Source: an uncultured Acidobacteriota bacterium
Lineage (GTDB): Bacteria > Acidobacteriota > UBA6911
Assembly: GCA_963809485.1 (NCBI GenBank)
Contig: CAWEJX010000008.1
Coordinates: forward strand, 192,001 to 256,000
Length of the DNA stretch: 64,000 bases
Direction: 5' to 3'
Positions within the stretch are counted from its first letter, which is position 1, and each line of letters starts with the position of its first letter. This document shows, one piece after another, positions 9,244 to 41,214 of this stretch. Made by a program: the position numbers and the translations under genes. The notes under the pieces were generated by a model. That model saw only the letters and a program-made list of their open reading frames with translations. It did not search any database and had not been told where the DNA came from.

Positions 9244-11086
9244 TCAGGCGCCTCCTTCATCACGCCTTCCTCCCCCAATTGCGTCGGGCTCCGCGGCCGC
9301 GCTCTCTGGAGACTGGCGAAAGGCTTGAGCCGCGTGCCGGTTGGTCGGGTAGAATCGGCCCGGGTCGATCAGTTCCATCAGACTCGTACCTCTCGAGCCA
9401 CGAGCGGAAGGACCGGTCGGCGCGGCTGACGGCGAAGGTGATGTTCTCGCTTCGTCAGCAGGGTGATCGCCTGACGCAGGACCTCCGCACCGGTCGTGTC
9501 GACGTCGACCATCGCCTCGCGCATCCAGCACGAACCCAGCGGACAGGGGTGGGCGCCTGCGTGACCAGCCGCTCGACGTCGTCGAGGAACAGGGTCGCAT
9601 TGGCGAAGTAGAGCGGGGCGCCGAAGCGGTACACCATCAGGCCCGAAGAACCGGAGACCTGCCCGGCGTCCCCGGGGACGAAGTGACTGCCGTCGGGCGC
9701 TTCCACGAGCGCCGAGGTGTCCGGACGGGACGCCCGGCGGATGACATCGATGGTCGACATGAGAAAGGCGATGAGGACGGCGCGCAGCGGGCCCAGGGCC
9801 AGCACGCTCAGCAGGCAGACCGCGGCGATCCAGAACTCCGAACGGCGCATCCGCCACAGCTCGCGGAACTCGTGGACCTCGATCAGCGAAAGCACCGCGT
9901 TGGCGACGATCCCGGCCAGGGCCGCATTCGGCAGATACGCCAGGAGGTTGGTGAAGAAAAGCATCACCAGTGTGATCGTCCCGGCCGCCACCAGGCTGGG
10001 CAACTGGCTGCGCGCGCCCGCGGCATCCATCGCCGCCGAGCGGGACGGGCTGTTGCCCGTGACGATGGACCCGGTGAAGGCTGCTGCCAGGTTGGCCGCA
10101 CCGTAGGCGAACAACATCTGGTCGCCGTCGGCCTTGTAGCCGTACTTGTTGCTGTAGCTGCGGACCACCAGCAGACCTTCGCACAGGAGAATGGCCACGA
10201 TGGCCAGGGCGCCCGGCAGGAGCCGCAGGTAGTCGGCCAGAGGGATCGTGGGCAGGGTCAACGCCGGGAATCCCGAGGGGATCGTGTTGCCGAGCACGGC
10301 GACGCCTTTCGCCGGGAGGTCGAGCATTGCGACGAGGGTCGTCAGCAGCACCAGGGCCACCAGCGCCCCGGGGACTTTGGGCGCATACCGTTTCATCAGC
10401 CGGATGATCAGGAAGGCGCTCACCCCGACCGCCACCGAGTAGAGGTTAGCGAGCGGAATGGAGTGGATCAGGGCCAGGACCTCCACGAAGTAGCCCTCGG
10501 TGCTGCACCGAGGTCGCCAAGGTCTCCTTGAGGTGCTCCGCCGCTGCCAGCAGGCCCGACGTGGCTTCGCCCACATGGGGAGCGGCGAGGATCTTCCTGA
10601 CCTGGTTGGTGAACACCTCGACGCCGAGCCCGGTGATGAAGCCCGCCATCACGGCGCGCGAGAGGAAGTTGGCGAGGAACGCCAGCCGGAAGATCCAGAA
10701 GATGAAGAACAGCAACGCGCAGACCACGGCCAGGGCCAGGGCGTACTGCATGCGAAGCGGATCCCCGGGCGCGGCGAAGGCGACGAGGGCGGCCCCGACC
10801 AGGGTGGCCATGGAAGCGTCGGGGCTCGTCACCAGGTGGCGCGAGCTGGCCGAGCAGGGCAAAGACCACCAGCGGGATGATGGCCGCGTAGAGACCGGCC
10901 GCGGGGGGCAGGCCGGCCACCTGCGCGTAACCGATGTTCAGCGGGATCATCAGGGCGGCCAGCGTGACGCCCGCCGAGACCTCCCGCGGGACGTCGGCCA
11001 GCGTGATCCCCCGCAGGCCCGCGAACGGGCGGGGCCAGCGGATCTTGGCGAGAATGGATTTATTGCCTCCCCGCGCCGGAAGTCAT
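9244..11086 (-). CDS. SulP/SLC26 anion transporter with STAS domain (several frameshifts)
   Basis: AGVTLAALMIPLNIGYAQVAGLPPAAGLYA, NSPSRSAAMDAAGARSQL, YRFGAPLYFANA, spread over several frames. ATGA overlap with the upstream gene. Confidence 0.88.
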
Positions 11087-11949
11087 GCCGCCCCTCCTGC
11101 ATCGATCAGGCCGGCCTGCTTGGCGAATATTTTGGCTCCAATGGCCGCGAGGACAACCGACCACAACGTCCACATGATGGTCATCACCACGATGCGCGGG
11201 TCCGCGTTCGGAATGGCAAGAGCCGCCGCCAACACCGCTGCGACGTTACGCGTGCCCATCCCGAGCGCCATGACGCTTCGCTGATTCTGTTTCATGCCGA
11301 AGCCGAAGCGATACGTGATCAGGCCCATCCCGACCATGAACAGGGTCATTGAAAGGAGGGCAAGTTCGCCCGCCGTGTTGAGCATCCCCCGGCCGTAGAT
11401 CACAAGGCACCACACGATCGTCAGCAATGTGGAGAGTAGGGCCAATCCCTTGACCGCCGGGAAGATCTTGGTTGCCCCAGTTCCGGCGTAATGCCGGATC
11501 GCCGCTCCGATCATCAGCGGCAGGAGTATGGTCAGGAGGAGCGGTTTCGCGAGCGACCAGGTGCTGATCGTCACCCCCTTGATCAGCAGGGGTGCCATCA
11601 ATGGCATCAACACCACCGTGCCGACCGCCACCAGCGGTATGAGGGCTCCCGCGAAGCCCATGTCTCCGCGGGCTTTTCCCACCATCTGCTGGAGGAACGG
11701 CGCGCAGGGCGCCAGGCTGGCGAGGAGCACCACGACTACGTAGGGCTCCGCCAGCGGAAGAACCCTGGTGATCAGATAGCCGAACGCCGGCCCCAACACC
11801 CAGCCCCACACGAAGATCAGCGCCAGGGATTTCTTATTCCGCAACGCCACGACAACCTCGGGCATCTTCACTTGGAGGCCCATGGCCGCCAGGTTCGACA
11901 CGGTGAAGATGAACACCAATGGGCCGAATGTGGTCTGAAGAAACTGCAT
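11083..11949 (-). CDS. Bile acid:sodium symporter (BASS/SBF) family transporter
   Basis: About 9 TM helices, LAPCAP and GTRNVAA motifs. Confidence 0.8.
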   Translation of the reverse strand: MQFLQTTFGPLVFIFTVSNLAAMGLQVKMPEVVVALRNKKSLALIFVWGWVLGPAFGYLITRVLPLAEPYVVVVLLASLAPCAPFLQQMVGKARGDMGFAGALIPLVAVGTVVLMPLMAPLLIKGVTISTWSLAKPLLLTILLPLMIGAAIRHYAGTGATKIFPAVKGLALLSTLLTIVWCLVIYGRGMLNTAGELALLSMTLFMVGMGLITYRFGFGMKQNQRSVMALGMGTRNVAAVLAAALAIPNADPRIVVMTIMWTLWSVVLAAIGAKIFAKQAGLIDAGGAA

Positions 11950-11996
11950 GACACTCGTTCATAGTCTGTTTCCTTTCAAGCAAACCGGTGTTGTTG

Positions 11997-13732
11997 TCAG
12001 AGCTGTTGACATAAGGAGTTCTCCGTCATTTCGATTCCGCGATCGAGCGCATCGCGCGGCGACAGCATGCCGCCGGAGATGTTTTTCGCCTTGAACCCGT
12101 TCTGCAGACAGGATGCGCGTCGCGTAGTAGGCGCGCTGGGCGGAACGGCAGATGACGTGGATCTCGCGGTCGCGGGGAAGTTCGCCCAGGCGGCTGCGGA
12201 GTTGCGGCAGCGGAATGTTGACCGCGCCCGGCACGCTCTCCACGACCAGTTCGACCGGCTCGCGCACGTCGAGCAGGAACGCGCCGTCCAGCGAATCCCA
12301 GTGACTGAGCGGCATGTCGCCGCGCAGGACATTCGCGGCCATCATCCCGGCGAAGTTGACCGGATCCTTGGCGCTGCCGAACTGGGGCGCATAGCACAGC
12401 TCGGATTCTTCCAGGTCGTAGATCGTCGCGCCCATCTGGATGGCCATGGCCAGGGCGCTGATCCGCTTGTCCACCGCCGGGCCATCCTCGCCCAGCGCCT
12501 GCGCGCCGAGGACTTTTCCGTTGGATTTGCGGAAGATGAATTTCAACCCGAGCATCTTGGCGCCCGGGTAGTATCCGGCGTGCGAATTCGGGAACAGGTA
12601 GATCTTCTCGTAGTCCGTGTCTCCGAGCTTCTTGAGCGTTTTCTCGCTGACGCCGGTCCAGGCGGCGGCGCCCCCGAACAGCCCGATGATCGAGGTGCCC
12701 TGCGTGCCGCGGTAACGGGAATCGCGCCCGCAAATCACATCGGCCGCGATCCGGCCCTGCCGGTTCGCCGGCCCGGCCAGCGCAATCAGGCTCCACTGGC
12801 CGGTCCCGAAGTCCTTGACTTCGATGGCATCGCCGACGGCGAAGATGTCCGGGTCGCTCGTGCGCATGTGCTCGTCCACGCGGATGCCGCCGCGCTCGCC
12901 GATCGCGAGGCCGGCCGACTTGGCCAGGGTGGTGTCCGGCTTCACGCCAATCGCGAGGATGACGATGTCCGCCGGAAACGTTTTGCCGGAGCTGGTCAGG
13001 ACCTCGATCGCGCCGCCGTCCAACTGCTTGAATCCGACCACGCCGTCATTGGCGACAACCTGGACGCCATGTCTTGTCATGTGGCCCTGGACGAGGCACG
13101 CGATCTCCGGGTCCAGCGGGGACAGGACGTGATCGGGCTTCTGGATGAGGGTCACATCGAACCCGAGATGGACCAGGTTCTCCGCCGTCTCCAGACCGAT
13201 GAATCCGCCGCCGACGACCACCGCGCGCGGTCACTGGCTTGACCATCTGAATCCCCGAGTAGCTGAACATCCCCGCGAGAAACGTCGTGCCTTTTTCAAT
13301 CCACTCGCGGATCGTCCTCGCGTCGGGCACGGTTCGCACATGGAAGATCCCCGGCAGATCAATGCCCGGCAGGGGCGGATGAACCGAGGCCGCCCCGGGC
13401 GACAGCACGAGCTTGTCGTAGGACTCGGTCGTGACCTCGCCGGTCTTGACATTGCGCAGATTCACGGTTTTCTTCTTCGGATCAATCGCGATCGCCTCGC
13501 AGTTCGTGCGCGCATCGATCGCGAACATGGCGCGAAACATCTGTTCGGTCCCCACCAGGAGGCTCGATTCCTTTTCAATCACGCCGCCGACGTGGTAGGG
13601 CAGTCCGCAGTTCGCGTACGAAACGTACGGTCCGCGTTCGACCATGAGGATTTCGGCCTTTTCATCCAGCCTGCGCAGGCGCGCCGCACACGACGCTCCG
13701 CCGGCAACTCCGCCAACGATGATGACTTTCAT
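11997..13732 (-). CDS. CoA-disulfide/persulfide reductase with C-terminal rhodanese domain (Cdr/Npsr-like), frameshifted
   Basis: VGGVAGGASCAARLRR, SYANCGLPY redox Cys, VGGGFIGLE, LCYAPQFGSAKD, LLDVREP..CRSAQR. Confidence 0.9.
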
Positions 13733-13913
13733 CTGTGAACCCCCTGTCCGACTAATAAGCTGCTGTTTCGCCGCAGGTCCAGCGTCCCAATAAACCTCCT
13801 CATTGCCTTGGAGTTTCCAGTTTCCAGTTTGAAGGGCTTTAACTGGGAACGCTAAACGGGTAAAGGCGTCAGCAAGCTGCCGCACTCCAAAGCATGTGCG
13901 CCAAAAAGCTCAC

Positions 13914-15346: not shown

Positions 15347-15380
15347 GACGACCTGTCCCTTCATTGTTGCGCTCCCTGAC

Positions 15381-15471: not shown

Positions 15472-15507
15472 AAAACGTGGAAGCCTCCAATTCGTTCATC
15501 AGCTCAG

Positions 15508-16023
15508 CTACAGGGCCTTAGGAAGTATCATCCGTTCGGGAGTGAGGTTGTAGGTCCACGGACAGCCCGAGTTCTTCCAGCCGTTCTTCAACCGCTGGCC
15601 CTGAAAAACGCTGCCAGGATCCTCGACCGTATCGCCTTCCATGCCATCGGTGATGTTGTAAGCATGCTTGAATCCCGCCTGGGCGAGCAGGTTGACAGCG
15701 ATGGCGCTGCGGCCGCCGGACCGGCACATCACCAGGATCGTGTCGTCGGGCTTGGCCACTTCCTTCACGCGGGATACGAAATCCAGGAGGAGCTTCATGG
15801 GGAACTTCCCCTTTTCAGCGTCCCACTCGTACACCTGAGCAGCGATAGGAATTTTCCAGGCCATGGCCGGATGGCCTACAAAGAGAAATTCCTCAGGGGT
15901 TCGGACGTCGAGAATTTTCACCTTTTCAGGATCGGCCTTCCACTTCTCGTAGGCCTCCTTCGACGTCACATAGAGTCCCAGCACCGTCTGCTTTTCTTTG
16001 GGGATTTTATTGGGTTCAGTCAT
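15508..16023 (-). CDS. Rhodanese-like sulfurtransferase, copy 1
   Basis: ILDVRTPEEF, active loop MCRSGGRS, GWKNSGCPW. Confidence 0.9.
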   Translation of the reverse strand: MTEPNKIPKEKQTVLGLYVTSKEAYEKWKADPEKVKILDVRTPEEFLFVGHPAMAWKIPIAAQVYEWDAEKGKFPMKLLLDFVSRVKEVAKPDDTILVMCRSGGRSAIAVNLLAQAGFKHAYNITDGMEGDTVEDPGSVFQGQRLKNGWKNSGCPWTYNLTPERMILPKAL

Positions 16024-16090
16024 ATTCAGTTCCTCTTTTCAATTCCTCGGTCTTCACTGTTTGTCGCGCTTGATTTTGCCTTGTGTGGCT

Positions 16091-16121
16091 GACGGCGCCC
16101 TCCGGCTTAGAGGGCGCCGTC
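16091..16121 (-). terminator. GC-rich stem-loop downstream of the DszB-like gene
   Basis: gacggcgccctc-cggctta-gagggcgccgtc, a perfect 12-bp stem without a clear U-tract. Confidence 0.5.
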
Positions 16122-16215
16122 GGAAATTCCTGCTCTGGATGCCGATGCATAGATTCTTTGCCGCGAAATACCAGGAAGAGCACACTCGCAAGGCTTTAAT
16201 TGCCTTTCCTTCCGG

Positions 16216-17385
16216 CTAGCCAATCCGTTGGCCTGACTTCAGCAGCTCAGTCGCATCGGGAAGCTTTGCCGTGGTGACCTTCTTCCATTGTTGCTCGAGC
16301 AGTTCCTTAGCTGCCTGTTCCAGGAATTCCGGCGCGGCCCACTTCTGCACATCGAAGTCGTGCTTGATGTAGCCGTGGCTCAGCATGAAGTCCTTGCCTA
16401 TCTCAACAGAAACAAGGTTCTGGGGCGACAGGTTGGGAACCATATCGATGTGCTCTATGCCCCTGAAAGTATGGTCGACGTCGAGGTAGAAGGTTTGCTT
16501 ATCAAGGATAGCTGCAGCAGCACGCTTGTGTTCATTGGCCCAGCGCCCTACTTTGATCATACCTTTCATGAATGTTACGGCGAGCTCAGGATGCTTCTCA
16601 GCCATCACGTCGGAGCAGGTGATGGCGGCAGGGATGTTGGCCACCTGCAGCGTCCAGTCGGGATACCTCGACAGGTCTTCGATAGCCTTGAACTTGCCGG
16701 TTGCTTCAGAAAGCTGCTGCAGCGGGCCGGTCTGCATATACATCGCATCTATGACGCCCTTCTCCAGCGCCGTCTCCAGCGGACGGAAAGCCAGGTCGTG
16801 CTTGTGGTCACGCCTCAGCCACAATTCTGACGGATTTTCCATGAGCGGACCCATCATTTCGGGCTTATCGTACCAGTCGTCGGGGTAGGGGAATTCCACG
16901 ATTTTTACATCCTTGCGGGTCATGCCGTTCAGCCTCAGCATCAGCTCTATGCCCTGTTCCTCCTGAATGCCCCACCAGTCGGTCTTGATGTTATTCTGGC
17001 TTCTTGAAAGCCCGATCTTCTTGCCTTTCAGATCGGCCATCCGGTAGATATCGTCCCTGGAGCGAACCAGCATGACGCCGCCTTCGCGCGGTGCATGTGT
17101 TACACCCAATAATCGTGTCCTGCGTATATCCGCCTGAACATGAATGGGTGGGAAAAGACCGCCAAAGCGGATGAGGTTGTCGAGGTTGTGAACGTAGTGC
17201 GGGTACCAGTCGTTCTCGGCACGGCAGCGGAGATAAAGGTAATTTACACCCATCTTCTTATACTCTTCCTTGGTCCAACCCAGTTCCTGGTCGACATTGC
17301 TGGCGGACACGAGGGGACAATTGGTGTAGTAGACCTCTTTCCAGTTCAACGGAACCGTGCTGAGTTTTTTAGCTTCCTTAGTCAT
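16216..17385 (-). CDS. DszB-like (aryl-sulfinate desulfinase / SsuA-fold) cytoplasmic protein
   Basis: YYTNCP (Cys27 equivalent), HYVH..IRFGGLFPP (His60/Arg70 region), RTRLLGVT, DLKGKKIG. No signal peptide. Confidence 0.75.
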   Translation of the reverse strand: MTKEAKKLSTVPLNWKEVYYTNCPLVSASNVDQELGWTKEEYKKMGVNYLYLRCRAENDWYPHYVHNLDNLIRFGGLFPPIHVQADIRRTRLLGVTHAPREGGVMLVRSRDDIYRMADLKGKKIGLSRSQNNIKTDWWGIQEEQGIELMLRLNGMTRKDVKIVEFPYPDDWYDKPEMMGPLMENPSELWLRRDHKHDLAFRPLETALEKGVIDAMYMQTGPLQQLSEATGKFKAIEDLSRYPDWTLQVANIPAAITCSDVMAEKHPELAVTFMKGMIKVGRWANEHKRAAAAILDKQTFYLDVDHTFRGIEHIDMVPNLSPQNLVSVEIGKDFMLSHGYIKHDFDVQKWAAPEFLEQAAKELLEQQWKKVTTAKLPDATELLKSGQRIG

Positions 17386-17507
17386 GACTGTGTTCCTTTC
17401 GTTTTTTACGCATTCCGCGGACAGCGGTAATGGCAAGTTGTTTTAAACCAGGCCCGGCTTTGTGCCTGGATTGTTGAGTTGTCTCTGATTCCTATCTTGT
17501 CTCTGTG

Positions 17508-25398: not shown

Positions 25399-25658
25399 TT
25401 GAGTTCCTCCTTCGGTTGACTCAGTAAAGCGACGAATAGAGAGGTGTCGTCATCGGATATGCCCGCCAGCCCATCTTCGCCCCAGCGATATGCCCGCGAG
25501 CGGGCGTGGTCATGCGTGAAGTAATTCCAGGCATCTCCGCTTTCGCTGTAGTCTTCGCGTACGGTTCCCCATTGCCGCTCGCTCAGGTAGGGCCCCCATT
25601 TTTTCCAGGGAGCTAGTTTCGTCCGGGCTTCTTCAAGTCTTGTCGCTTCAGCGTTCAT
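25395..25658 (-). pseudogene. N-terminal fragment of an MGH1/GH63-like glucosidase
   Basis: [43 protein letters not shown], then an abrupt end. Full-length family members are far longer. Confidence 0.85.
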
Positions 25659-25719
25659 AAAGAGTTCCTCTAAAAAGCGGGGGGAATCCGGGGACACTGG
25701 TGACTGTCCCTTTCCATAC

Positions 25720-26864
25720 CTACTTCGTTGATGCCCGATTCTGCAGACGCATCTCTTCCCATTCCACCATGCTGGAAGGAACGTGGAACCATTCTTCTTC
25801 CGATACGGGCACCATCACGATCGCCTCGGTTGCGCATCCAATCACGCACACGCCGCAACCGATGCACTTGGCTCGTTCTACCTTCGCCTTGCCATTCTCA
25901 TCCTCAGCGATGGCGTCCACCGGGCAACGCTCGATGCAGGCGCCGCAGGCAATGCACTCTTCCGGATCGATGACGGCGCGGTAGTTCGATCTCTGCGGCC
26001 CTTCCGCCAGACCGGCGAGCTGTCTTGGCCGTGTAAATATCCCACAGCAGCAGGCGCAGCAGTTGCACGTGCCGACGAACTGAGGCGTCTCCGCGCACAT
26101 GGTGAAGCCATAGAACGCGAGGTGGACGTGCCCCATCTGCTCGAGCTTACCAAGGAGCTTCGACGCCTCCTCCCGGCCAATGACGGTTTCGCCGAGCGGG
26201 GTCTGAGGCGGCAGCCCGACGAATCCGCAACGCTTCATGGGCAGATTGCAGCTGTAGTCCGTGCAGTAACTCCCTCTCCCTTTTGCACACGCAGGGAATC
26301 ACGAGAAAACGCTCGTGCCGTTTGAAGTGGGCGTCGATGTCAAGGTGGGGTTCGCGCTGCGATATACTCGGGCTTGAGTGATCCTCGCACCGGAACGACG
26401 CCCAGCAACCCGGGCCGCGGGCGAAAGGATCCGCTCGCCGCCGCCCTCGATCACGTATTGCTCGAAGAGCTCGGCGAACTCCTTGTCCAGCAGCCGCATG
26501 TTGGCTTCATACCAGCCGACCATGAACGGGCCCAGCCGGTACCTCTTCTCGCCTTCGACCTCAGGCTTCAGACCGGGTGCCGCCATGCCGGGAGAGTCGA
26601 GGCGAACCAGACGCCGCGGTATCAGGCTCTCGAGCGTCGCCGTGACCTCGCCGACATCGCGGCCCACCCGTTTCGCAATCTCGGCACGCGGTTTCGGGAA
26701 AGCGGGTCAATTGGCCGGCCAGCCAGACCTCCTCTGGTGTGAACGACTTCTTGATAAGGTTTATTTCCACCCCGGAGGGCGTCCGGGGAAAGCCATGCGG
26801 GAGCGCCTCCAGCGCAGCCGCCAGTCGTTCGTAAATGTCTTCTGGATTTGTCAGAATTGCTCAT
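25720..26864 (-). CDS. 4Fe-4S binding protein with Cys-rich CNCCxCCC motif and C-terminal 2x[4Fe-4S] ferredoxin (frameshifted)
   Basis: [41 protein letters not shown] across several frames; GGAG RBS before 26864. Confidence 0.8.
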
Positions 26865-26908
26865 TGATAATCTCCTTTTTGCAGCTGCTTGGCCTGCCTT
26901 AAAAGGCG

Positions 26909-26974
26909 AACGGCAAAGACCTCAAAGATCGCCAAGCACAAGGTTCTTTGCGGTCTTGGCGATCTCTGCGGTTT
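26909..26974. repeat. Imperfect palindrome (GCAAAGA..CGCCAAG / CTTGGCG..TCTCTGCGGTT)
   Basis: Inverted 9-mer-like repeats in an intergenic gap. Confidence 0.55.
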
Positions 26975-27034
26975 ATATTTCCACTGGCCGGTTTCCATCC
27001 GACATACTCTTGGACAACCGGCTGAACATGTACC

Positions 27035-28012
27035 TCATTTCAAACCCGGGGCTGTTTGGCCACCGCGGCCAAAAGCTTCGTCGATGATGGATTGCAGGTA
27101 CTGGACCAGTTCATCGGACGGTGTTTTATAATCGTCCAGTTCGTACACAACACCCAGGTGTTCGTACTTGCCCAGGCCAAAGCGGTGATACGGTAACAGC
27201 TCATAATCAATCACGTTCTTGTGCGGGCGAATGAACGCCAGGACCGCCCGGATGTGCTCTTCGTCGGCATTGATGCCGGGAATCAGCGGCGTGCGCGCGA
27301 TAAAGTCGATGTCCGGGAACGTCTCGTACGCTCGCTTGAAGTTCGCCAGGATCCGCTCGTTGCTCACACCGGTCCACTTCTTGTGCCGCTCCGGGATCGA
27401 GAGCTTATGATCGTGAAGCATCGTATCCACATGAGGCAATACCTTTTCCACGAAAGCCCAGGGCACATTGCACGCCGTTTCGATGGCTGTATTGAAGCCG
27501 CGCTCGTGGGCTTCCTCGAGCAGCGCGGCGCTGAAATCCGGCTGCAGCAAGCACTCGCCGCCGCTCAGGGTAATGCCGCCGCCGGTCGAGCGATAGAAGG
27601 AGGCGTCCTTTTCCACCTCGTCCAGCACCTCGTTTAAGGTCATCTTCTTGCCGTACATGGAGAGCGCTTTCGGCGGGCAGAGAGAAACTAACGCCTCGTC
27701 GCAGTCGCCGGCCAGGTCCCAGTTGACGCGGACCTTGTCATCGTCGGCGCCCTCCACTACGAAGAACGCCCCTTCCGGGAAGGGAGGCTTGAGGCACACG
27801 CCGCATGCCTTCTTTCCGGTGCACAACTTGGGGTCGTAGGCCAATTCCGATTTGAAGCGGATGCTTTCGGGATTGCCGCACCATTTGCAGCGCAGCGAGC
27901 AGCCTTTGAGGAAAACCGTTGTACGGATGCCAGGACCGTCGTGGCTGCAATAGCGCTGGATATTCAAAACGATTCCGCTTGGGGCGGATGTGTCGGCTGA
28001 CTGGTTCTTCAT
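27035..28012 (-). CDS. Glycyl-radical enzyme activating enzyme (radical SAM)
   Basis: HDGPGIRTTVFLKGCSLRCKWCGNPES, GGITLSGGE, IET, RTPLIPGIN, LLPYHRFG..KY. Confidence 0.95.
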   Translation of the reverse strand: MKNQSADTSAPSGIVLNIQRYCSHDGPGIRTTVFLKGCSLRCKWCGNPESIRFKSELAYDPKLCTGKKACGVCLKPPFPEGAFFVVEGADDDKVRVNWDLAGDCDEALVSLCPPKALSMYGKKMTLNEVLDEVEKDASFYRSTGGGITLSGGECLLQPDFSAALLEEAHERGFNTAIETACNVPWAFVEKVLPHVDTMLHDHKLSIPERHKKWTGVSNERILANFKRAYETFPDIDFIARTPLIPGINADEEHIRAVLAFIRPHKNVIDYELLPYHRFGLGKYEHLGVVYELDDYKTPSDELVQYLQSIIDEAFGRGGQTAPGLK

Positions 28013-29184
28013 AGTTCCCTCCCCAGGCAAATGCCAAGTGACCGCGCGATCTGCATGAATTCGCTGTTCGCGGGCACAGTTCTGACTTTGTTGATCGCTT
28101 CCGCCAGCGGCACGAAGGTGATGTCCGGCGGGACGAATGCCATCATCACGCCATATTTGCCGGCTTGAATTGCACGTATGGCGCCGGCCCCGTAACCCAA
28201 TCCCAGTTGACGATCAACCGCAGAGGGGGTGCCGCCCCGAACCCAGGGGCCCAGGACCATTGGAAAAGTCTCCTCGGCGATCAGCAACTGCAGCCTGGTC
28301 GCCACAGACTCGGCTGCCTGACCGGATTTCTGGATGACAAATTCACTCGCATCACCGGTTGCCAGCGGAGACAGAGATGCTTTGAACGTGGATTCTTTTG
28401 CCTGTGGTTGCGGACCGTCCGTAAATCTTGCTCCTTCGGCCACCACCACCAGCCCGTAAGGCCGCCGGGGGCTAACCTTGTCCTTCAACCTCGCAGCTAT
28501 CACCCGCAGATCGCAGGGGATCTCCGGGATCAGGACCGCATCGGCACACACGGCGATGCCGGCCTGAAGAGCCAGCCAGCCGGCCTGCGCGCCCAGGACC
28601 TCGACCACGCCAATCTTCCGGGCTGACTGGGCAGCCTGGCGGGCCTTGTCGAGCATTTCAATGGTGAAGCTGAGGGCGCTGTTGAACCCGAAGGAGACCG
28701 CGGTGGCGGCGATGTCGTTCTCGATCGTGCGGGGGATACAGACAGCATTGAGCCCTTTGCGGTGGAGTCTATGGAAAATGCTCATCCCCCGGCCGCCAAC
28801 AACCGCAATCAGGCCATCAATTCGTTCCGCCTGTAGTCTTTTCAGAAGTTCATCGGACATGTCCACTTCCTCGACCATGCCGTCTTCATTCACCGTGCGC
28901 ACATGAAACGGGTCCACCCGGGCCGATTGGCCGAGGATCCCCCCGGCGGCCGGATCCAGGTTCTCGGCCAACTGGGGACTGAGTGGCACCAACCCGCCAT
29001 CGGGGTATCGATCGGGGTGAAGCAACCCGTCAAACCCATCCCGGATGCCGAGTATCTCCCATCCCAGTCTTCCTGCCGCCAGAGCCGCACCCTTGACCAC
29101 GGAATTCATCCCTGGAACGTAGCCGGCCCCTACCACAATGGCAATGCGTCTAAGAAAACCGGCATGACCTACTTCAATACTCAT
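28009..29184 (-). CDS. 6-phosphofructokinase (PfkA)-fold protein with divergent active site
   Basis: PGMNSVV, GIRDGFDGL, GGILG, IPRTIENDI, SFGFNSA, LIPEIP, VVAEGA, RGGTPSAVDR. Several canonical catalytic residues are replaced. Confidence 0.88.
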   Translation of the reverse strand: MSIEVGHAGFLRRIAIVVGAGYVPGMNSVVKGAALAAGRLGWEILGIRDGFDGLLHPDRYPDGGLVPLSPQLAENLDPAAGGILGQSARVDPFHVRTVNEDGMVEEVDMSDELLKRLQAERIDGLIAVVGGRGMSIFHRLHRKGLNAVCIPRTIENDIAATAVSFGFNSALSFTIEMLDKARQAAQSARKIGVVEVLGAQAGWLALQAGIAVCADAVLIPEIPCDLRVIAARLKDKVSPRRPYGLVVVAEGARFTDGPQPQAKESTFKASLSPLATGDASEFVIQKSGQAAESVATRLQLLIAEETFPMVLGPWVRGGTPSAVDRQLGLGYGAGAIRAIQAGKYGVMMAFVPPDITFVPLAEAINKVRTVPANSEFMQIARSLGICLGREL

Positions 29185-29267
29185 GACGTACCTCCTCTAT
29201 TAAAGCGTCGCGTGTCAGACTTCATAGCGTTCCATCTTCCTGCCTCGTGATGCGGGCAAGGAGCGGC

Positions 29268-29300
29268 CGGTGCGGCGTGGCGGAGCGCCACGCGCACCGG
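29268..29300 (-). terminator. Stem-loop right after the GRE gene (partial terminator or mRNA stabiliser)
   Basis: ccggtgcg-g-cgtggcg-gag-cgccacg-cgcaccgg hairpin. Confidence 0.55.
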
Positions 29301-29318
29301 CGCCACCTTTCCTCAGCA

Positions 29319-31733
29319 CTAGCCGAAACTCTGCTCCGTGCGTGCGATGATTTCGTTCTGAACGCCAGGATGCAGCCTTGTGAAGAAAGCGCTGAAACCG
29401 GCTACCCGAACCACGAGGTCAGGGTACTTTTCCGGGTGTTTCTGCGCGTCCCTCAGGATGTTGGTGTCCAGCACATTGAACTGAATGTGATAGCCGTCGT
29501 GGTCCATGTAGGTCTTGACGAGGTTCAGGACATTCTCCCGGCCCTTGCGGGTTTTGAGCTGATTGGGGGGGAGCTTCAAGTTCATGTGCGTCGCGGTGAA
29601 CTTGATCGCGTCCGCACCCTTCGCTGCGGACATGACCAGCGCGGTCGGCCCGGTGACGTCGGTTCCGGGCATGGCCGACAGGCTGCCATCGGTGAGCGCC
29701 ACGCCGGCCTTTTTGCCGGTGGGCAGGGCCCCGGTCATCAGACCCATCAGGTTGTGGATGCTCTTAGTGTAGGAGTCAGGCGCCGATCTGATGTCCCGGC
29801 TGATGTAATTGCCGCCCCCCTCCACGTTCTGGAAGGCTTGGAAGATGGTCTCGTACACCCGGTGGACGAGCTTGTTGACCTCGGGGATGTCGTTTCCATG
29901 CTTGGGCGCTTCGAAGCACATCTTCCCGACGCGCTCGTATTCCCCCTCGAAGTTGGCCGCCAGGGCCTTCTTGAGCTCGGCCATGGTCAACTTCTTCGTG
30001 TCGTACACGAGGTGCTTCACCGCCATAAGCCCGTTGGCGGCGTCGACGCCGCCAACCGTGATCTGGGCGACCGTGTAGTAGTTGGCTCCACCGTTCCAGA
30101 CCTCGGTGCCGGTTTCGATGCAGCCCCCGGTGAGGATGGAGCGCCAAGTGACCGGCAGATACTCGGCACACAGAATGCTCGCGATCCACGCCTCGCGGCG
30201 GAGCGTGTCCTCGCAGAACTGGAGCTGCTTCTCGAAGGCCGCGTACAGCTCCTCGAAGTCCTTGAAGGACTCTGGATCGCCGGTCTTAGGTCCGATCTGC
30301 TGCTTGGTGCGAGGGTCAAACCCGTTGTTCAGGGTGAGCTCGAGGACCTTCCCCAGGTTGGGCTGCCCCTCCACGGGATGCCCCGTCTCGTAAGGGATGT
30401 AGCTTCCCACGCACGCCCCGATGCAGGTCCGTCGTGCCTTCTCGAGGGTGAGCCCCTTTTTGCTGTTCGCGAAGAGGTTCAAGGCTCGCTTGATCATCAC
30501 GTCGCCGTTGACGAACTGCGGCATGCCGACCCCGGTATCGATGACGTCGAGGACCTTTTCGAGGAACTTGCCGCTCATCTTCTCGGTGTAGCAGCAGGAC
30601 AGCGGCGGCTGGGGCAGCTTCAGGTACTTGGCGGCATCGAGGATCAGGTAGTCCATCTCCGCCGTGGCGTCGTCTCCATCCTCGGTGAAGCCTCCGAGGG
30701 TGATGCTCTGGCCGAGGTCCGCGGAGTTCTGGATCTTGACATACTCACCGTAGTAATAACCGATCTCGTTCAGCTTGATGAACAGGTGCTTCAGCAGGGT
30801 GGTGGCTTCCTCCGGACCGATCCGGCCGGCCGCCTTGTCACTCTGATAGAACGGCTCGAGGTTCTGGCCCAGGTAGGCCTCCGAGTAGCCGCATCCGACC
30901 TGCTCGATCTCCGCGCAGATGTGGCACAGGAAGTGGCACTGAAGGGCCTCCCGCAGCGTCCGGGCAGGATGCTCGGGCACGTGTTCGCAGACCTCGGCGA
31001 TGTCGAGCAGCTCCTGCTTCCGCTCGCCGTTCTTTTCCTTCGCCGCCATCTCCCGGGCCAGCTCGGCGTACCGGTTGGCCAGTCGGATGATGGCCCTCAT
31101 CGTGATCAGACAGGCCTCGTAGAAGTAGAACTTGGAAGCATTCGGCAGCCGCATGTCGAGGGCCTTCTGCCGCTCCTCGACTTCCTTGATCATGCTGGCC
31201 AGGCCTTCTCTGTAGACGCGGGGGTAGTTCAGGTTGCCTCCGCCGCCCGGCCACGACATGAACTCGGCGATGAGGCCGGACTTGTAGACCGGGTCCGGAT
31301 CGAAGCCGTACTTCTTGATGAAGATCTCATCGGCCCGCGGCCGCAGCGCCCACTTGTCCCAGTACTCGAGCGCCCACTGGTTCGCCTTCCGGTCCTCCGG
31401 GGTCTTCGAGTTCTCGACCGTCTTCTCCTGCTTCATCCACTCCACGTTCCATTCCGGATACGTGTAGACTGCATTGACGCTGCTCGCCATGCTGCCCACG
31501 ATGAGGTTGTCATCGATGTACAGCTTCTTCCTCTCAATCAACTGTTCGAAGAACTTTGCCCGGCGGATGATTTGCTGATAGCCGGCTGTGCCCTCGTAGA
31601 CCTCCGCCATGATGCGGACCCGCTCGTTGTCGATCTCCTGGGGCGTGTTTATGAGCTGAGCCTTCAGCCGATCGATCCGCGCGTCATCGGCTTTAATCTT
31701 ACCGGTGGATTGCTTGCTGGTTTCCGTTTTCAT
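29319..31733 (-). CDS. Glycyl-radical enzyme (PFL superfamily) of unknown specificity
   Basis: 804 aa from ATG 31733 with GGAGA RBS. Gly loop HIQFNV..DAQKHPEKYPDLVVRVAGFSAFF..QNEIIART; Cys loop TCIGACVGS; PARTLREALQ; GMPQFVN. Confidence 0.95.
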   Translation of the reverse strand: MKTETSKQSTGKIKADDARIDRLKAQLINTPQEIDNERVRIMAEVYEGTAGYQQIIRRAKFFEQLIERKKLYIDDNLIVGSMASSVNAVYTYPEWNVEWMKQEKTVENSKTPEDRKANQWALEYWDKWALRPRADEIFIKKYGFDPDPVYKSGLIAEFMSWPGGGGNLNYPRVYREGLASMIKEVEERQKALDMRLPNASKFYFYEACLITMRAIIRLANRYAELAREMAAKEKNGERKQELLDIAEVCEHVPEHPARTLREALQCHFLCHICAEIEQVGCGYSEAYLGQNLEPFYQSDKAAGRIGPEEATTLLKHLFIKLNEIGYYYGEYVKIQNSADLGQSITLGGFTEDGDDATAEMDYLILDAAKYLKLPQPPLSCCYTEKMSGKFLEKVLDVIDTGVGMPQFVNGDVMIKRALNLFANSKKGLTLEKARRTCIGACVGSYIPYETGHPVEGQPNLGKVLELTLNNGFDPRTKQQIGPKTGDPESFKDFEELYAAFEKQLQFCEDTLRREAWIASILCAEYLPVTWRSILTGGCIETGTEVWNGGANYYTVAQITVGGVDAANGLMAVKHLVYDTKKLTMAELKKALAANFEGEYERVGKMCFEAPKHGNDIPEVNKLVHRVYETIFQAFQNVEGGGNYISRDIRSAPDSYTKSIHNLMGLMTGALPTGKKAGVALTDGSLSAMPGTDVTGPTALVMSAAKGADAIKFTATHMNLKLPPNQLKTRKGRENVLNLVKTYMDHDGYHIQFNVLDTNILRDAQKHPEKYPDLVVRVAGFSAFFTRLHPGVQNEIIARTEQSFG

Positions 31734-31923: not shown

Positions 31924-32315
31924 TCATTTACTCCTGTCGTGGGATGTGGCTGCCGCAATGGCAAGTAGCAGGGCATCCCGATCGACCGGTTTCTTCATGT
32001 AAGCCGAAGCGCCGAGTACCCGCGCCCGCTCTGCCGCACCGAGCTCGTCATGAGCGGTGATGACAATGACTGGCACATTGATGTGGCTTGAGTTGAAAGC
32101 CTCCAGCACGTCGAAACCACTAACCTGCGGCATCTGCAGGTCCAGCAGCAATAGATCGAGTGAGTGTGAATCCAGGGACGGCAAGGAGAGTTCGCCCCCT
32201 CATACTCCTCGACATGAAAATCCCGGCCGGTCAGCAATCGGCGAAGGGCCTTTCGCATTTCCGGCTCGTTGTCCGGAACCGCAATAACTGGTGGTGTAGT
32301 TTGCGCCTTTGGCAT
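31924..32315 (-). CDS. Single-domain receiver, paralogue of 17508-17900 (frameshifted, possibly a pseudogene)
   Basis: MPKAQTTPPVIAVPDNEPEMRKALRRLL, then in another frame LLLDLQMP..ITAHD..KKPVDRD. Confidence 0.8.
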
Positions 32316-38164: not shown

Positions 38165-38782
38165 CTATTTTCCGATGCCGAGTCGCTCGGCAACGCGCAC
38201 AAGATCCGCGAGCGAGTCGACTCCCATCTTCCTCATGATCTGAGCGCGGTGCAGCTTGATATTCTGTTCTCCGGTTCCGAGGTCGAAAGCAATTTGCTTA
38301 TTGAGTTGCCCGGCGACGACATGCTTCATGACTTCGCGCTGCCGTGGCGTGAGGCTGGCCAGTCTGGCCGCCAATGCCGCGGTTTCAGCGGCCGCCTGAC
38401 GCCGGGTCTCGGCCATCTGCAGGGCTGCGCGCACAGCCTGGACCAGTGCGGCCGCGTCGACCGGCTTGGTCAGAAACTCCGTCGCGCCGGCCTTGATCGC
38501 GCGCACGCTCATGGGAATGTCACCGTGACCGGTGAGAAATATGATGGGTATGAGAATGCCCTGGTGTGTGAGACGCCGCTGCAACTCCAATCCGTCCAAC
38601 TCCGGCATCGACACGTCCAGCACAAGACAAGCGTTGTTCCCCGGGCGGCACGTTTCCAGGAATGCGCTCACGGATGTAAAACCAAGCGTCTCGAATCGCC
38701 TCGCCCGCAGCAAGCGCATAAGCGCCTTGACCATTTCAGGCTCGTCGTCGAGAACATATACCACACCGTCTGGAGTGCTCAT
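38165..38782 (-). CDS. FixJ/NodW/TodT-family response regulator (REC + LuxR HTH)
   Basis: VLDDE, LDVSMP, FLTGHGDIPMSVRAIKAGA, LTPRQREV..NKQIA..HRAQIMRKM. Confidence 0.93.
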   Translation of the reverse strand: MSTPDGVVYVLDDEPEMVKALMRLLRARRFETLGFTSVSAFLETCRPGNNACLVLDVSMPELDGLELQRRLTHQGILIPIIFLTGHGDIPMSVRAIKAGATEFLTKPVDAAALVQAVRAALQMAETRRQAAAETAALAARLASLTPRQREVMKHVVAGQLNKQIAFDLGTGEQNIKLHRAQIMRKMGVDSLADLVRVAERLGIGK

Positions 38783-41214
38783 GGCTTCTCCGAGGACCCG
38801 GCGACGGGCAGTTCAAAGTGGAAAACGGCGCCGCCCTCCGGGTGTGGCTCCGCCCAAAGGCGGCCGTGATGCGCGTCCACGATGGAGCGGCAGATGGTCA
38901 AGCCTATGCCCAGTCCCTGGGTTTTGGTGGTGTAGAACGGCTGGAAGATCCGCTCCACGTCCCCGGGTAATCCGGCGCCCTCATCTCGCACGGAGGCACG
39001 AACGCGGTCCTGAAGCAGCATCGTTTGAAGATGGAGCCGGCGCGTGCCGGGCGGATTGCCGGCCATGGCATCGGCCCCGTTGAGGATGAGGTTGAGCACG
39101 AGTTGCTGCAGTTGCACGCGATCGCCGGCGATCTGCGGCAAACCGGGAGCCAGTTCGCGAATAACTTTGACGCCGCGCTCGATGAGATCGGTATTGGTGA
39201 GGCGCAGCACCTCCTCGATGACGTCGTTGAGCGGGAGCGGTTGCAGGGACAAATGGCCGCGCTTGAGCAACGCACGCAGCCGCTGGATGACCTCGCCTGC
39301 GCGGTGGTCCGCCGCTACGATGTCCGAGAGGATGGACTGCACTTCGGCTACATCCGGCGGTTCCTGGAGGAGCAGTTCCTGCGCGGCCTGGGCATTGCTG
39401 AGGATGATGCTCAGCGGTTGGTTCAACTCATGAGCCAGCGAGCCGGACAGCACGCTCATTGTGTTCACGCGCGTCAGGTGCGTCAGGTTGTCACGCAGTT
39501 CCTGGGTTTCCCTCTCTGCCCGTTTGGCTTCGGTGATGTCTCTCGTGACTTGAACTGCACCATGGATGTTCCCGGCAGGATCCCGAATGGGGTCCGTCGA
39601 GATTGACAGCCATTTGCCGCTGCCGGCGTGTAACAACTCGAGTTTCGAGCTCAGCCCTGTCTGAAAGGTCTTCTGACAGGGGCATCCATCCATCGGGCCA
39701 CTGGCTCCGTGCAGCACGGAATAGCATGCGCTTCCAACAATCCGCTCCATGGGTAGGCCAAGGAACCGCGTAGTCGCAGCGTTGAACCGGGTGATGCGAT
39801 ACTCAGGATCGACGATCATGACTGAATCCTGGATGGAATCGAAAGTTGCCTGCCATTCTTCGGCGGCGGATTGGAGCCGTTCCGATAATAACTTCCTGTC
39901 GGTGATATCGCGAATCACGCCGAACGTTCTGACGCCACTTCCGTTCGCCGTTCGGCTTGCGAGCCGGGCGAGGTGATGAACCCACTTCTGCCCCTGAGCC
40001 GGATGCAGATAGCGATACTCTTCCGAGATGCGTTCAACCTTTCCGTCGTGCAGCTTCTGTCGTTCGTCCAACAATCGTTGTCGGTCGTCGGGATGGACAT
40101 GCTCCAACCAGAAATTAGCCGGCTCAAGCTCCTGCCGCAGTTCGGGGGGGACACCGCAAATTTCCCGAAACCGCTCGTCCATGAAGCAGTTGCGTTCACC
40201 GTAGTCCACTTCATAATACCCGAGGCCGGCCAGATCCGTTCCCGCCGCTAAGCGAGCCTGGCTCATATGGAACGCCTCTTCGGCACTCTTGCGGTCGGTG
40301 ATGTCAAGGGAAACGCCCATGATGCGCTCCACTTCACCGTCCGGCGTGAAATAGGGCAGCCCACGGGATGCGATCCAGCGCATGCTGTCATCACTCAACC
40401 GAATGCGGTATTCCACATTCACGGGTTCACCTGCCCGCACGGATCGATCGAGGATCCCCTGAACGAGATGCAGATCGTCGGGATGAACCGAGGCTTCGAA
40501 ACGCCTCATGCTGATGATTTCGTCCGGCGAATACCCGAAGATCGCCCGAGCCTTCTCAGTAGCCCAAAAGATACCGGTGCGGCAATCCAACTCCCAGAGC
40601 CCCACTTCTGCGGAGGACGTCGCAAGGATCAGGCGCTGTTCGCTTTCGCGCAAGGACTGGTCCGCGTGTTTCCGGGCAAGCGCATTGGTGATGATTTGGG
40701 CCACCAGTTGCAGGCGTTTCACCAGGGCGTCCGGCCAATCGCGCTCCGCACGCATGGTATTCAGGCAAAAAGCGCCAATAGGAGGCTCGCCTCCCACCGA
40801 GAGCGGAAGGCTCAGATTTGACTTGATGCCCAATTGGCTGGAAGTTTCCCGGTCGCGGGCGGCCTCCGTCGGCAGACACTCCAGCGAATCAACGACAACC
40901 ATACGGCCGGCCGCTAATTGCTGTCCGACCCAAGGAAAATCTTCCTGGCTTATCTGTCTGGCAGACAGCGGACCTTGCTGGGCGCTGTAAAGGTGGGTAA
41001 GCATGAAGGAACCCGGGGTTGCGTCCGACCATTGCCAAAGTGCCAGGAGATCGAGGTCAAGGAACTCGCATATGCGGCGCAGGGCATCCATGATTTCACG
41101 GTCGACCTCGCCGGCGGGCAGATTGACGAATTTCGATGAAAGATCGGCAATCAGCGTCTCAAAGCGCAGCCGTTCTTCAAGTTCCGCATTCGGGTCGATC
41201 TTTCCCATTTCCAT
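38779..41214 (-). CDS. Cytoplasmic GAF-PAS-PAS-PAS sensor histidine kinase
   Basis: SLAHELNQPL H-box, QLVLNLILNGADA, DEGAG, FYTTKTQGLGIGL; no TM helix. Confidence 0.93.
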   Translation of the reverse strand: MEMGKIDPNAELEERLRFETLIADLSSKFVNLPAGEVDREIMDALRRICEFLDLDLLALWQWSDATPGSFMLTHLYSAQQGPLSARQISQEDFPWVGQQLAAGRMVVVDSLECLPTEAARDRETSSQLGIKSNLSLPLSVGGEPPIGAFCLNTMRAERDWPDALVKRLQLVAQIITNALARKHADQSLRESEQRLILATSSAEVGLWELDCRTGIFWATEKARAIFGYSPDEIISMRRFEASVHPDDLHLVQGILDRSVRAGEPVNVEYRIRLSDDSMRWIASRGLPYFTPDGEVERIMGVSLDITDRKSAEEAFHMSQARLAAGTDLAGLGYYEVDYGERNCFMDERFREICGVPPELRQELEPANFWLEHVHPDDRQRLLDERQKLHDGKVERISEEYRYLHPAQGQKWVHHLARLASRTANGSGVRTFGVIRDITDRKLLSERLQSAAEEWQATFDSIQDSVMIVDPEYRITRFNAATTRFLGLPMERIVGSACYSVLHGASGPMDGCPCQKTFQTGLSSKLELLHAGSGKWLSISTDPIRDPAGNIHGAVQVTRDITEAKRAERETQELRDNLTHLTRVNTMSVLSGSLAHELNQPLSIILSNAQAAQELLLQEPPDVAEVQSILSDIVAADHRAGEVIQRLRALLKRGHLSLQPLPLNDVIEEVLRLTNTDLIERGVKVIRELAPGLPQIAGDRVQLQQLVLNLILNGADAMAGNPPGTRRLHLQTMLLQDRVRASVRDEGAGLPGDVERIFQPFYTTKTQGLGIGLTICRSIVDAHHGRLWAEPHPEGGAVFHFELPVAGSSEKP

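Follow-up and report, generated by a model that had tools for sequence, protein, structure and literature searches.

A glycyl-radical enzyme of uncharacterised type encoded with a probable pseudo-phosphofructokinase in an Acidobacteriota genome

Positions 25720 to 31733 of a 64,000-nucleotide stretch of DNA from an uncultured Acidobacteriota bacterium (GenBank assembly GCA_963809485.1, contig CAWEJX010000008.1, positions 192,001 to 256,000; here called the window) carry a run of four genes on the minus strand, which encode a glycyl-radical enzyme (GRE), a protein with the fold of phosphofructokinase (PFK), a GRE activase and an iron-sulfur (Fe-S) protein. The reading that we favour, with a probability of about 0.45, is that they form a horizontally spread four-gene system of an uncharacterised GRE clade, in which the PFK-like protein acts as an accessory subunit and the enzyme carries out base-independent radical chemistry, probably on a sulfur-bearing substrate. 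Chemistry is what defines the GRE classes, and with every new class a new anaerobic pathway has come to light. The clade described here is widespread and unstudied, and probably has an anaerobic chemistry not yet described.

The GRE gene (29319..31733, minus strand) is intact and encodes 804 amino acids from an ATG at 31733, with AGGAGA 8 nt 5′ of the start; an alternative open reading frame (ORF) beginning with TTG reaches up to 31880, and this longer version is not needed. A spacer of 134 nt, followed by a GAGGAGG site, leads to the intact gene for the 391-residue PFK-like protein (28009..29184, minus strand), and this gene is translationally coupled to the intact activase gene (27035..28012, minus strand) through an ATGA at 28012-28009, in which the TGA of the former overlaps the ATG of the latter. 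Pfam assigns PFL-like (6e-149) and Gly_radical (4.8e-27) domains to the GRE, PFK (2e-61) to its neighbour, and Radical_SAM and Fer4_12 to the activase, which has the cluster motif C38-x3-C42-x2-C45 and scores 312.7 bits against PFLE_PFLC (TIGR02494; cut-off 174). The ORF calls and Pfam thus agree with the initial annotation, which had described an intact GRE with an RVAGF loop, a PfkA-fold gene and an activase in one direction with the ATGA overlap. Its fourth gene needs revision: an Fe-S protein gene is present, but the ORF at 25720-26238, which matches several Fer4 models, is only the C-terminal part of a frameshifted gene (25720..26842, minus strand) with at least three frame switches between about 26842 and 25723 and an in-frame stop. 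In the full protein a C-terminal RnfB-like 2x[4Fe-4S] ferredoxin domain is combined with Cys-rich motifs and an N-terminal domain of unknown fold; in a relative it is encoded by an intact ORF of 385 residues (L001:12719-13876), and its N-terminal 290 residues have no Pfam, NCBIfam or PDB match. The annotation's further statement that no small BssB/C- or HpdC-type subunit gene is visible holds for both the 134-nt gap and the region after the activase.

Judged by its sequence, the window protein is a genuine GRE that fits no characterised type. Its Gly loop (RVAGFSAFFTRLHPGVQNEIIAR, with Gly779 in RVAGF) matches the superfamily fingerprint RVxG[FWY]x6-8[FL]x4Qx2[IV]x2R, which carries the radical glycine according to the accessible portion of a June 2026 review of GREs (the same portion is meant by the 2026 review throughout). 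A PFL-like barrel domain, a catalytic Cys on the Cys loop and the CX3CX2C motif of the activase are likewise present, and the activase would form the radical at Gly779. The Cys loop reads RRTCIGACVGSY (C437-I-G-A-C441-V-G). In phmmer alignments with HypD and glycerol dehydratase (GD), C441 aligns with Cys434 and Cys433, respectively; GCVE lies over ACVG, so that the Glu at Cys+2 is replaced by Gly, the GH of HypD (His160) and of GD (His164) lies over GG, and HypD Asp278 falls over Cys281 of the window GRE. An acidic residue is missing at Cys+2, an Ala precedes the Cys and a second Cys lies four residues upstream, just as had been pointed out from the letters of the sequence.

An alignment of 33 full-length GREs from the fetched loci extends these observations to the family. 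Invariant in all 33 are C441, V442, G439, C281 (in QVGCGYSE), the stretch W161-P-x-G-G-G-N-L-N, D653, Y655, K657, S658, H660, N661 and I446-PYETGHPVE-455, and C437 is present in 29. At Cys+2, 25 members have Gly and 8 have Pro, and none has Glu. By these alignments the active site is devoid of the Glu/His pair of the eliminases and isomerases and has instead an invariant Cys281, predicted to occupy an active-site position, together with Lys657, His660 and a Gly-rich loop.

These features can be set against those of the known types. In the 2026 review all GRE 1,2-eliminases and all three isomerases keep a CXE motif whose Glu hydrogen-bonds the substrate, and GD uses this residue (Glu435) and His164. 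HypD (PDB 6vxc) and the other eliminases and isomerases share with the window GRE the PFL-like barrel, the Gly loop, the single catalytic Cys and the type of activase, but the CXE Glu of HypD corresponds to Gly or Pro, the His of its GH to Gly and its Asp278 to Cys, and with C-V-G in 25 and C-V-P in 8 of its 33 members the family departs from the CXE rule. Two Cys on the Cys loop are found only in pyruvate formate-lyase (PFL) and TdcE according to the review; the adjacent pair of the formate-lyases is absent here, C437 and C441 lying four residues apart. Among the decarboxylases the review gives a Glu at Cys+2 for HPAD and IAD, which the window GRE does not have, and Gln484 and Trp495 for PAD (PhdB), whose places are taken by Gly or Pro at Cys+2 and Val at Cys+13. 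The small beta and gamma genes that lie beside the alpha gene of X-succinate synthases have no counterpart, there being no small ORFs in the cluster.

The GRE lies below the cut-offs of all NCBIfam equivalogs: HypD (491 bits against 1100), IAD (427/1100), HpsG (416/1000), HpfG (399/1000), CutC (384/1050), HPAD (366/1150), PflD (352/1109) and, far lower, PFL (TIGR01255; 83/994). The PFL2-3 subfamily model gives 484 bits, under its cut-off of 678. The best solved structures are HypD (6e-125 over the full length) and then glycerol dehydratase (4e-116); all other characterised GREs of solved structure are weaker, namely PD, CutC, HpyG, HpzG, AAD, YbiW, PflD, IseG, HpsG, HplG, BSS, MASS, IslA, HPAD and PFL. 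A word-indexed search yielded 1139 relatives at E ≤ 0.001 among 8000 scored candidates, and the best 120 of the 1139 are 77–91% identical to the window GRE. One member of the family, with a 79%-identical GRE, is assigned by its source record to Flavihumibacter profundi. The names that the relatives carry are 'formate C-acetyltransferase', 'pyruvate formate lyase family' or, in some JGI records, HypD, and the motifs do not support the first or the last of these names. An exhaustive search of 50%-identity representatives gave 7689 proteins at E ≤ 0.001, of which the nearest of full length are P0122 (52% identity), P0124 (47%), P0125 (43%) and P0126 (42%); all four have CVS or CVP, with no Glu at Cys+2, and retain an equivalent of Cys281. 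When the 60 nearest of the 138 full-length 50% representatives were scanned with NCBIfam, only P0159, which is 36% identical to the window GRE, passed an equivalog cut-off (HypD), and none of the 35 representatives nearer than P0159 passed any. In a FastTree phylogeny of 146 GREs (786 columns, midpoint root, representatives shorter than 740 residues excluded) the family has a support of 1.0 and is joined successively by P0124 (0.98), P0122 (1.0), P0125 (0.996) and P0126 with P0130 (0.92). The earlier proposal of a GRE class of uncharacterised chemistry is supported by these results, and the tight clustering with a characterised GRE that had been named beforehand as telling against it is not seen in the NCBIfam scores, the solved structures or the nearest representatives.

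Next outside this Glu-less super-clade lies a C-x-Q clade (C-V/T-Q; support 0.94), in which P0144 has a Trp 13 residues past the Cys. Because this spacing equals that of PAD Gln484 and Trp495 the C-x-Q clade may be PAD-like. The likeness to arylacetate decarboxylases that the initial annotation suggested is possibly right at a distance, but the PAD-critical residues are not kept. The same placement lends some colour to the idea that the window GRE is itself a PAD-related decarboxylase, in which the thiyl radical would abstract hydrogen from, or oxidise, a carboxylate held by Lys657 with loss of CO2, the sulfur genes described below being bystanders or the acid carrying sulfur. PAD is also without a Glu at Cys+2, and Lys657 is invariant in the family. 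However, the Gln and Trp positions are Gly/Pro and Val, the identification of the C-x-Q clade with PAD is itself indirect, the IAD and HPAD models are far from being reached (427/1100 and 366/1150 bits), and neither PAD nor any other decarboxylase in the 2026 review has a PFK-like partner. We regard a decarboxylase as unlikely.

Two further groups of relatives are of note. A Desulfovibrionaceae clade with 42% identity (L057-L072, for example L061:8001-10361, and including Desulfovibrio piger) is also without Glu at Cys+2, keeps the extra Cys and matches no NCBIfam equivalog, and a sister clade of about 50% identity (L083-L089 and L091) has C-V-S and keeps Lys657.

The association of the GRE with the PFK-like gene is a fixed one. 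A scan of species-representative genomes gave 80 loci, 62 with a family GRE (62–92% identity over the best segment) and 18 with the 42%-identical Desulfovibrio-type GRE. Fourteen of the 62 could not be assessed, having lost the GRE C-terminus or having less than 1300 nt downstream; in all of the 48 assessable loci the PFK-like gene and the activase gene lie downstream of the GRE, and wherever both are present the PFK-like gene precedes the activase (47/47). Since all 48 keep it, the arrangement is far beyond chance, and the conservation of this gene order, on which the initial annotation had made its case depend, is borne out. Furthermore, the partner is specific to the clade. A PFK-like gene was found in none of the 18 Desulfovibrio-type loci and none of the eight sister-clade loci, where the gene straight after the GRE is the activase (L084, L085, L086 and L089) or an Fe-S gene (L091). 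Metagenomes scanned with the sister protein P0122 yielded 54 loci, the eight of the sister clade among them; 53 of the 54 are non-family loci without a PFK-like gene, and the single locus with one, L126, holds a true family member (84% identity) in the usual arrangement.

The record labels of the loci cover at least 12 phylum-level groups: Acidobacteriota, Pirellulales, Bacteroidales and other Bacteroidota, Balneolaceae, Ignavibacteria, Gemmatimonadota, Actinomycetota, Kiritimatiellia, Verrucomicrobiota, Aminicenantes, Nitrospiraceae, Chloroflexia and delta-, beta- and gammaproteobacteria. Within the phylum of the window, a sample of 300 genomes holds one PFK-like orthologue (G026, 77% identity; the next best protein has 45%), with an 82%-identical GRE directly upstream on the same contig, and the GRE and the PFK-like gene are both absent from three genomes of the window's own genus. 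The window's genome has one copy of each. The high identity across phyla, combined with this patchy distribution, indicates that the four-gene system has spread horizontally. The window's genome (6.0 Mb, 7.3% contamination, against 2.9–3.9 Mb for the three genomes of the same genus) also has seven further PFL-like loci, eight with the family GRE; positions on its contigs are C8:177013, C12:60886-65758, C12:96712, C20:7405, C7:669114 and C4:228026-230439, and among the seven are one of canonical PFL type, which lies 15 kb before the window, a pair arranged in tandem on C12 and, on C4, a copy that is broken.

The PFK-like protein has the PFK domain over its whole length (Pfam PF00365, 208 bits over 277 of 277 profile positions) and lies under all NCBIfam cut-offs (TIGR02483, 245 against 430; PRK03202, 221 against 253). 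It is 35% identical to the two ordinary PFKs of the same genome, with which the motifs of all PFK-like copies, of both paralogue types, were compared. GGGD of the nucleotide motif in the ordinary PFKs is GAG[YF] in the PFK-like proteins, the D103 motif GGDG or GGGG is GG[RQK]G, and the catalytic motif PKTIDND is P[RK]SIEND, so that Asp127 of TIDND has become Glu in [ST]IEND while D129 is mostly kept. At the R171 position MGR or MGH is replaced by LG[EA], at that of R243 TR or SR by Phe or Tyr, and the H249 motif G[HY]xQRGG by GPWxRGG. Several of the degenerate positions vary within the family. We take D103, D127, R171, R243, H249 and R252 to have roles in nucleotide-Mg binding, catalysis and fructose-6-phosphate binding, as in classical PFK structures. 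On this comparison the PFK-like protein has lost the motifs for ATP-Mg and for fructose 6-phosphate, and because of this loss it is probably a non-kinase accessory subunit, that is, a pseudo-phosphofructokinase. The PfkA 'mixed' group (TIGR02483) has the full-length fold in common with it and differs in having GGD, D103, R171, R243 and H249. To our knowledge, non-catalytic PFK subunits are known only from eukaryotic enzymes.

Residues that have been retained, namely the acidic pair E/D at 127/129, R252, E222 and, in paralogue 1, R162, could still serve an altered catalytic or ligand-binding function. Were the protein an active kinase, it might phosphorylate a sugar-like compound for isomerisation or cleavage by the GRE, comparable to the anhydroglycolysis of YbiW and PflD with its sugar 6-phosphates. 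The kept fold and residues, the existence of sugar-phosphate GRE isomerases in the 2026 review and a GH63-like glycoside hydrolase in 7 of the 62 family loci by tblastn (as an ORF cluster in 10 loci, including the window) are in keeping with such a role. But GGD, D103, R171, R243 and H249 are all replaced, several of them variably, the GRE is devoid of the CXE employed by YbiW and PflD, aldolase and sugar-isomerase genes do not recur near the GRE loci, and two ordinary PFKs are encoded elsewhere in the genome; a kinase is in our view improbable.

A second PFK-like paralogue follows the activase in 17 of the 62 family loci (L011, L012, L016, L025, L026, L029, L030, L032, L036-L038, L044, L045, L056, L075, L077 and L079), and a third is present in two of those. 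The degenerate motifs are found again in the second paralogue, a hint of a hetero-oligomer. Two apparent fusions of PFK-like protein and activase were set aside: P0272 (712 residues), the one match when longer proteins were sought with the PFK-like protein as query, has its PFK part out of frame for about 60 residues ahead of the activase part, and the single ORF of L025 looks like an indel at the overlap.

The activase would be the most likely binding partner of the probable pseudo-phosphofructokinase. Family activases keep the CX3CX2C motif (CSLRCKWC) and have a ferredoxin-like insert with four invariant Cys (C64, C70, C73 and C112), against two full CX2CX2CX3C motifs in the activases of five sister-type and two Desulfovibrio-type loci; on this evidence the insert was remodelled in just the clade that also gained the PFK-like gene. 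A complex prediction for activase and PFK-like protein scored 0.53 (runs of 0.56, 0.41 and 0.53), compared with 0.06 for the best of three controls; the runs share at least 41% of contacts, and the pLDDT confidence of the partner is at least 81. The mark used for such predictions is passed by 116 of 157 solved complexes and by 2 of 215 mismatched pairs, and of these passes 18 of the 157 and both mismatches lie at scores of 0.60 or less; as the prediction was run on our own alignments, these counts hold only roughly for it. The model faintly suggests that the PFK-like protein is bound to the activase.

Extra proteins are known from other GREs, among them the beta and gamma subunits of BSS, the gamma subunit of HPAD and the delta subunit of MASS. 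According to the 2026 review these bind the GRE and are small, being either Fe-S or rubredoxin-like proteins, whereas the PFK-like protein is a clade-specific protein of 391 residues without a Cys motif, is encoded between the GRE and activase genes, and is placed by the weak prediction on the activase. The word 'phosphofructokinase' does not occur in the review, and in the titles and abstracts of the literature found there is no operon that pairs a GRE with a phosphofructokinase. A pseudo-enzyme of a glycolytic family as a fixed GRE partner would be a kind of accessory that the accessible part of the review does not include.

The genes that recur around the family GREs give a clue to the kind of substrate. 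Neither this neighbourhood nor the catalytic degeneracy of the PFK-like protein figured in the initial annotation. Counted by tblastn with one representative per recurrent ORF cluster over the 62 family loci, the most frequent neighbours are the Fe-S protein (30 loci, 46–100% identity) and a CoA-disulfide reductase with a C-terminal rhodanese domain (29 loci, 66–100%), which in the window is split into two overlapping ORFs (11959..13885, minus strand) and in L001 is a 582-residue ORF; the score against TIGR03385 is 427 bits, below its cut-off of 579. A 406-residue DszB-like protein of SsuA/NMT1 fold without an obvious signal peptide (16216..17436, minus strand) has relatives in 25 loci (65–94%), a BASS/SBF-family transporter (11083..11949, minus strand) in 21 (28–100%) and a single-domain rhodanese (15508..16023, minus strand; Pfam Rhodanese 4.4e-13) in 14 (55–77%). 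A SulP-family anion permease (9455..10576, minus strand, a partial ORF) belongs to a STAS/SulP ORF cluster found in 20 loci and has tblastn matches in 7 of the 62. The Fe-S, CoA-disulfide reductase-rhodanese, DszB-like, BASS and rhodanese genes are each absent from the 18 Desulfovibrio-type loci, and the 53 non-family metagenome loci have no DszB-like gene and one weak match to the CoA-disulfide reductase-rhodanese; the sister clade has rhodanese-like genes (L084 and L085) and Fe-S genes (L084 and L091). The recurrent neighbours often sit immediately upstream of the GRE and share its orientation (for example in L005, L008 and L023).

For the DszB-like protein, the 2′-hydroxybiphenyl-2-sulfinate desulfinase DszB (PDB 2de2; E 1.3e-11) is the only significant match in the PDB, the next having E 0.051, and SsuA_fam gives 58 bits. 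YTNCPL of the neighbour lies over YSNCPV of DszB, with the His and RFGG also aligned, and all of 18 relatives examined keep TNCP, the His and RFGG without change. In DszB we take Cys27, His60, Arg70 and Gly73 to be the active-site Cys and the sulfinate-binding residues. The Cys, His and RFGG are held in common with DszB and the overall similarity is weak (47 bits); we name the protein a candidate sulfinate desulfinase. In the 300-genome sample the only DszB-like sequences outside the window's genome are a broken copy in G042 and a fragment in G264, and both of these genomes are without the family GRE.

Because DszB-like, CoA-disulfide reductase-rhodanese, rhodanese, BASS and SulP genes are enriched near the GRE, the neighbourhood points to organosulfur chemistry and suggests that the substrate or product of the GRE is an organosulfur compound. 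Sulfur-linked gene neighbourhoods are also a feature of the C-S-cleaving GREs IslA, IseG and HpsG. These differ in that, according to the 2026 review, they keep CXE and hold the sulfonate by an Arg/Gln/Arg triad, and they are distant from the window GRE (7kq3, 3e-76; 5ymr, 2e-87; 6lon, 2e-87). The literature found holds no paper that ties a GRE to a desulfinase, a sulfinate or CoA-disulfide reductase, none that brings GREs together with rhodanese in Acidobacteria and none on a formate-lyase of Sulfotelmatobacter, and the accessible part of a paper on D-cysteinolate has nothing on this clade.

The same neighbours admit a reductive enzyme similar to class III ribonucleotide reductase, in which Cys441 and Cys281 (or Cys437) would form a disulfide in each turnover, to be re-reduced by the CoA-disulfide reductase-rhodanese and the Fe-S protein. 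The invariant Cys281, the presence of Cys437 in 29 of 33 GREs and the occurrence of a pyridine-nucleotide disulfide reductase in 29 and of the Fe-S protein in 30 of the 62 loci would fit. Against this stand the facts that no PFL-like GRE reductase is given in the 2026 review and that the reductase is missing from more than half of the loci, and a bonding distance between the cysteines would have to be assumed. We hold this to be distinctly doubtful. An X-succinate-synthase-type hydroalkylase, which would add the substrate to fumarate, is very improbable indeed: such enzymes likewise have no Glu at Cys+2, and a DauA-related SulP transporter (80 bits, cut-off 614) and an enoyl-CoA hydratase occur in some loci, but the alpha chains of BSS and MASS are farther from the window GRE than the eliminases are (4pkc, 7e-82; 9o8u, 4e-79), beta and gamma subunit genes are absent, and no beta-oxidation module recurs.

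For the accessory-subunit reading with a sulfur-bearing substrate that we prefer, a scheme can be drawn as follows. The RnfB-like Fe-S protein would feed electrons to the activase, which would use S-adenosylmethionine to generate a radical on Gly779 that passes to Cys441. The Cys441 thiyl radical would attack an anionic substrate for which no general base is needed, and homolytic beta-scission or a Kolbe-type fragmentation might follow, perhaps with Cys281 taking part as a further redox or covalent partner. As an accessory or regulatory subunit, the PFK-like protein would most likely be bound to the activase with its remodelled ferredoxin insert. A sulfur oxyanion or sulfane sulfur would be released and then processed by the neighbouring proteins. 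A stronger version of the proposal is that this is a new functional class of GRE, which acts by base-independent radical chemistry on an organosulfur anion that is otherwise inert, for example by homolytic or Kolbe-type release of sulfinate or sulfite from a sulfonate, sulfone or sulfinate without a neighbouring hydroxyl, and for which the dead PFK is needed as the first large GRE/activase accessory subunit that is not an Fe-S protein; we think this rather unlikely as it stands. If base-independent desulfonation were true, soil and sediment anaerobes would have a new desulfonation route, and a true sulfur link would in any case bear on the anoxic breakdown of organosulfur compounds. Should the sulfur link prove false, the system would remain a clear example of a PFK fold put to a new use, and GRE discovery would still have in it a well-defined target.

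Several observations weigh against this proposal. In the window the sulfur genes (9455-17436) lie 9–20 kb from the GRE, past an inserted molybdopterin-oxidoreductase cluster, and each of them is missing from more than half of the 62 loci, which is due in part to the shortness of many loci. Rather than pathway partners, they could form a module for sulfide stress or sulfur respiration that travels along with the GRE. Aldolase, aldehyde dehydrogenase and CoA-transferase genes, which might have indicated a pathway, are not consistently present in the neighbourhoods. The residue equivalences of the GRE are those of sequence alignments, the pair that was modelled contains the activase and not the GRE, and both apparent fusions of PFK-like protein and activase are either frameshift artefacts or doubtful. 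To these may be added the PFK residues that the PFK-like protein retains, and the fact that the taxon labels are as deposited and nearly all relatives are metagenome-assembled genomes.

The inserted cluster (18669-24310), between the GRE operon and the DszB-like and rhodanese genes, comprises a molybdopterin oxidoreductase (718 residues), a 4Fe-4S subunit, a 330-residue ORF without a Pfam match, a GltD-like protein and a ferredoxin, and looks from its composition like a module of the polysulfide/thiosulfate-reductase type. Other recurrent neighbours of the family GREs are an ABM-domain protein (13 of 62 loci, 31–100% identity), a SAM synthetase (10, 45–100%) and an enoyl-CoA hydratase (8, 39–100%), all three absent from the 18 Desulfovibrio-type loci, and a GAF-PAS histidine kinase (38779..41214, minus strand), a candidate regulator with an ORF cluster near the GRE in 22 loci. 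NCBIfam gave nothing substrate-specific for the transporters, the enoyl-CoA hydratase, the ABM protein or a nitroreductase-ferredoxin. In Bacteroidales a cytosolic protein of 180 residues (U180) is encoded directly upstream of the GRE in 15 loci (for example L012:6122-6664) and a protein of 166 residues with a signal-peptide-like start (U166) recurs in 10 loci (for example L014:13560-14060); neither has a Pfam, NCBIfam or PDB match. Of the 18 loci with a Desulfovibrio-type GRE, 9 have a gene for a TauE sulfite exporter in the vicinity and 7 one for an amino-acid permease. A 532-residue ORF upstream of the Desulfovibrio-type GRE was rejected as an antisense artefact of a sigma-54 regulator gene, and U213 and U442 were discarded as spurious ORFs.

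Relatives of the system are also present in environmental sequencing runs. In each of the 23 runs listed, at most 0.08 of the sampled words were found. Four runs were compared at a likeness of 85%, and the bins covered by contigs of relatives number 30 of 30 in a sediment metatranscriptome library (X3), a sediment (X2) and a wetland (X5), and 28 of 30 in a freshwater sediment (X1); one X2 contig of 1624 nt covers the PFK-like gene and the start of the activase gene. An RNA library such as X3 can contain DNA, and the coverage speaks for the presence of relatives, not for transcription.

Besides the Fe-S gene, the window has split or truncated genes at 25395-25697, 24712-25398, 11959-13885, 34298-35786 and 31940-32315. 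They comprise a GH63-like N-terminal fragment, a zinc-dehydrogenase stub of 228 residues, the CoA-disulfide reductase in its two overlapping ORFs, an outer-membrane efflux protein likewise divided between two ORFs and, just upstream of the GRE, the remnant of a response regulator, and reflect either an indel-rich assembly or real gene decay. Finally, a gene for an AbiEii-type toxin (282 residues) and an upstream ORF of 213 residues lie at 36185-37626, 4.5 kb upstream of the GRE, and the smaller ORF could encode the antitoxin.

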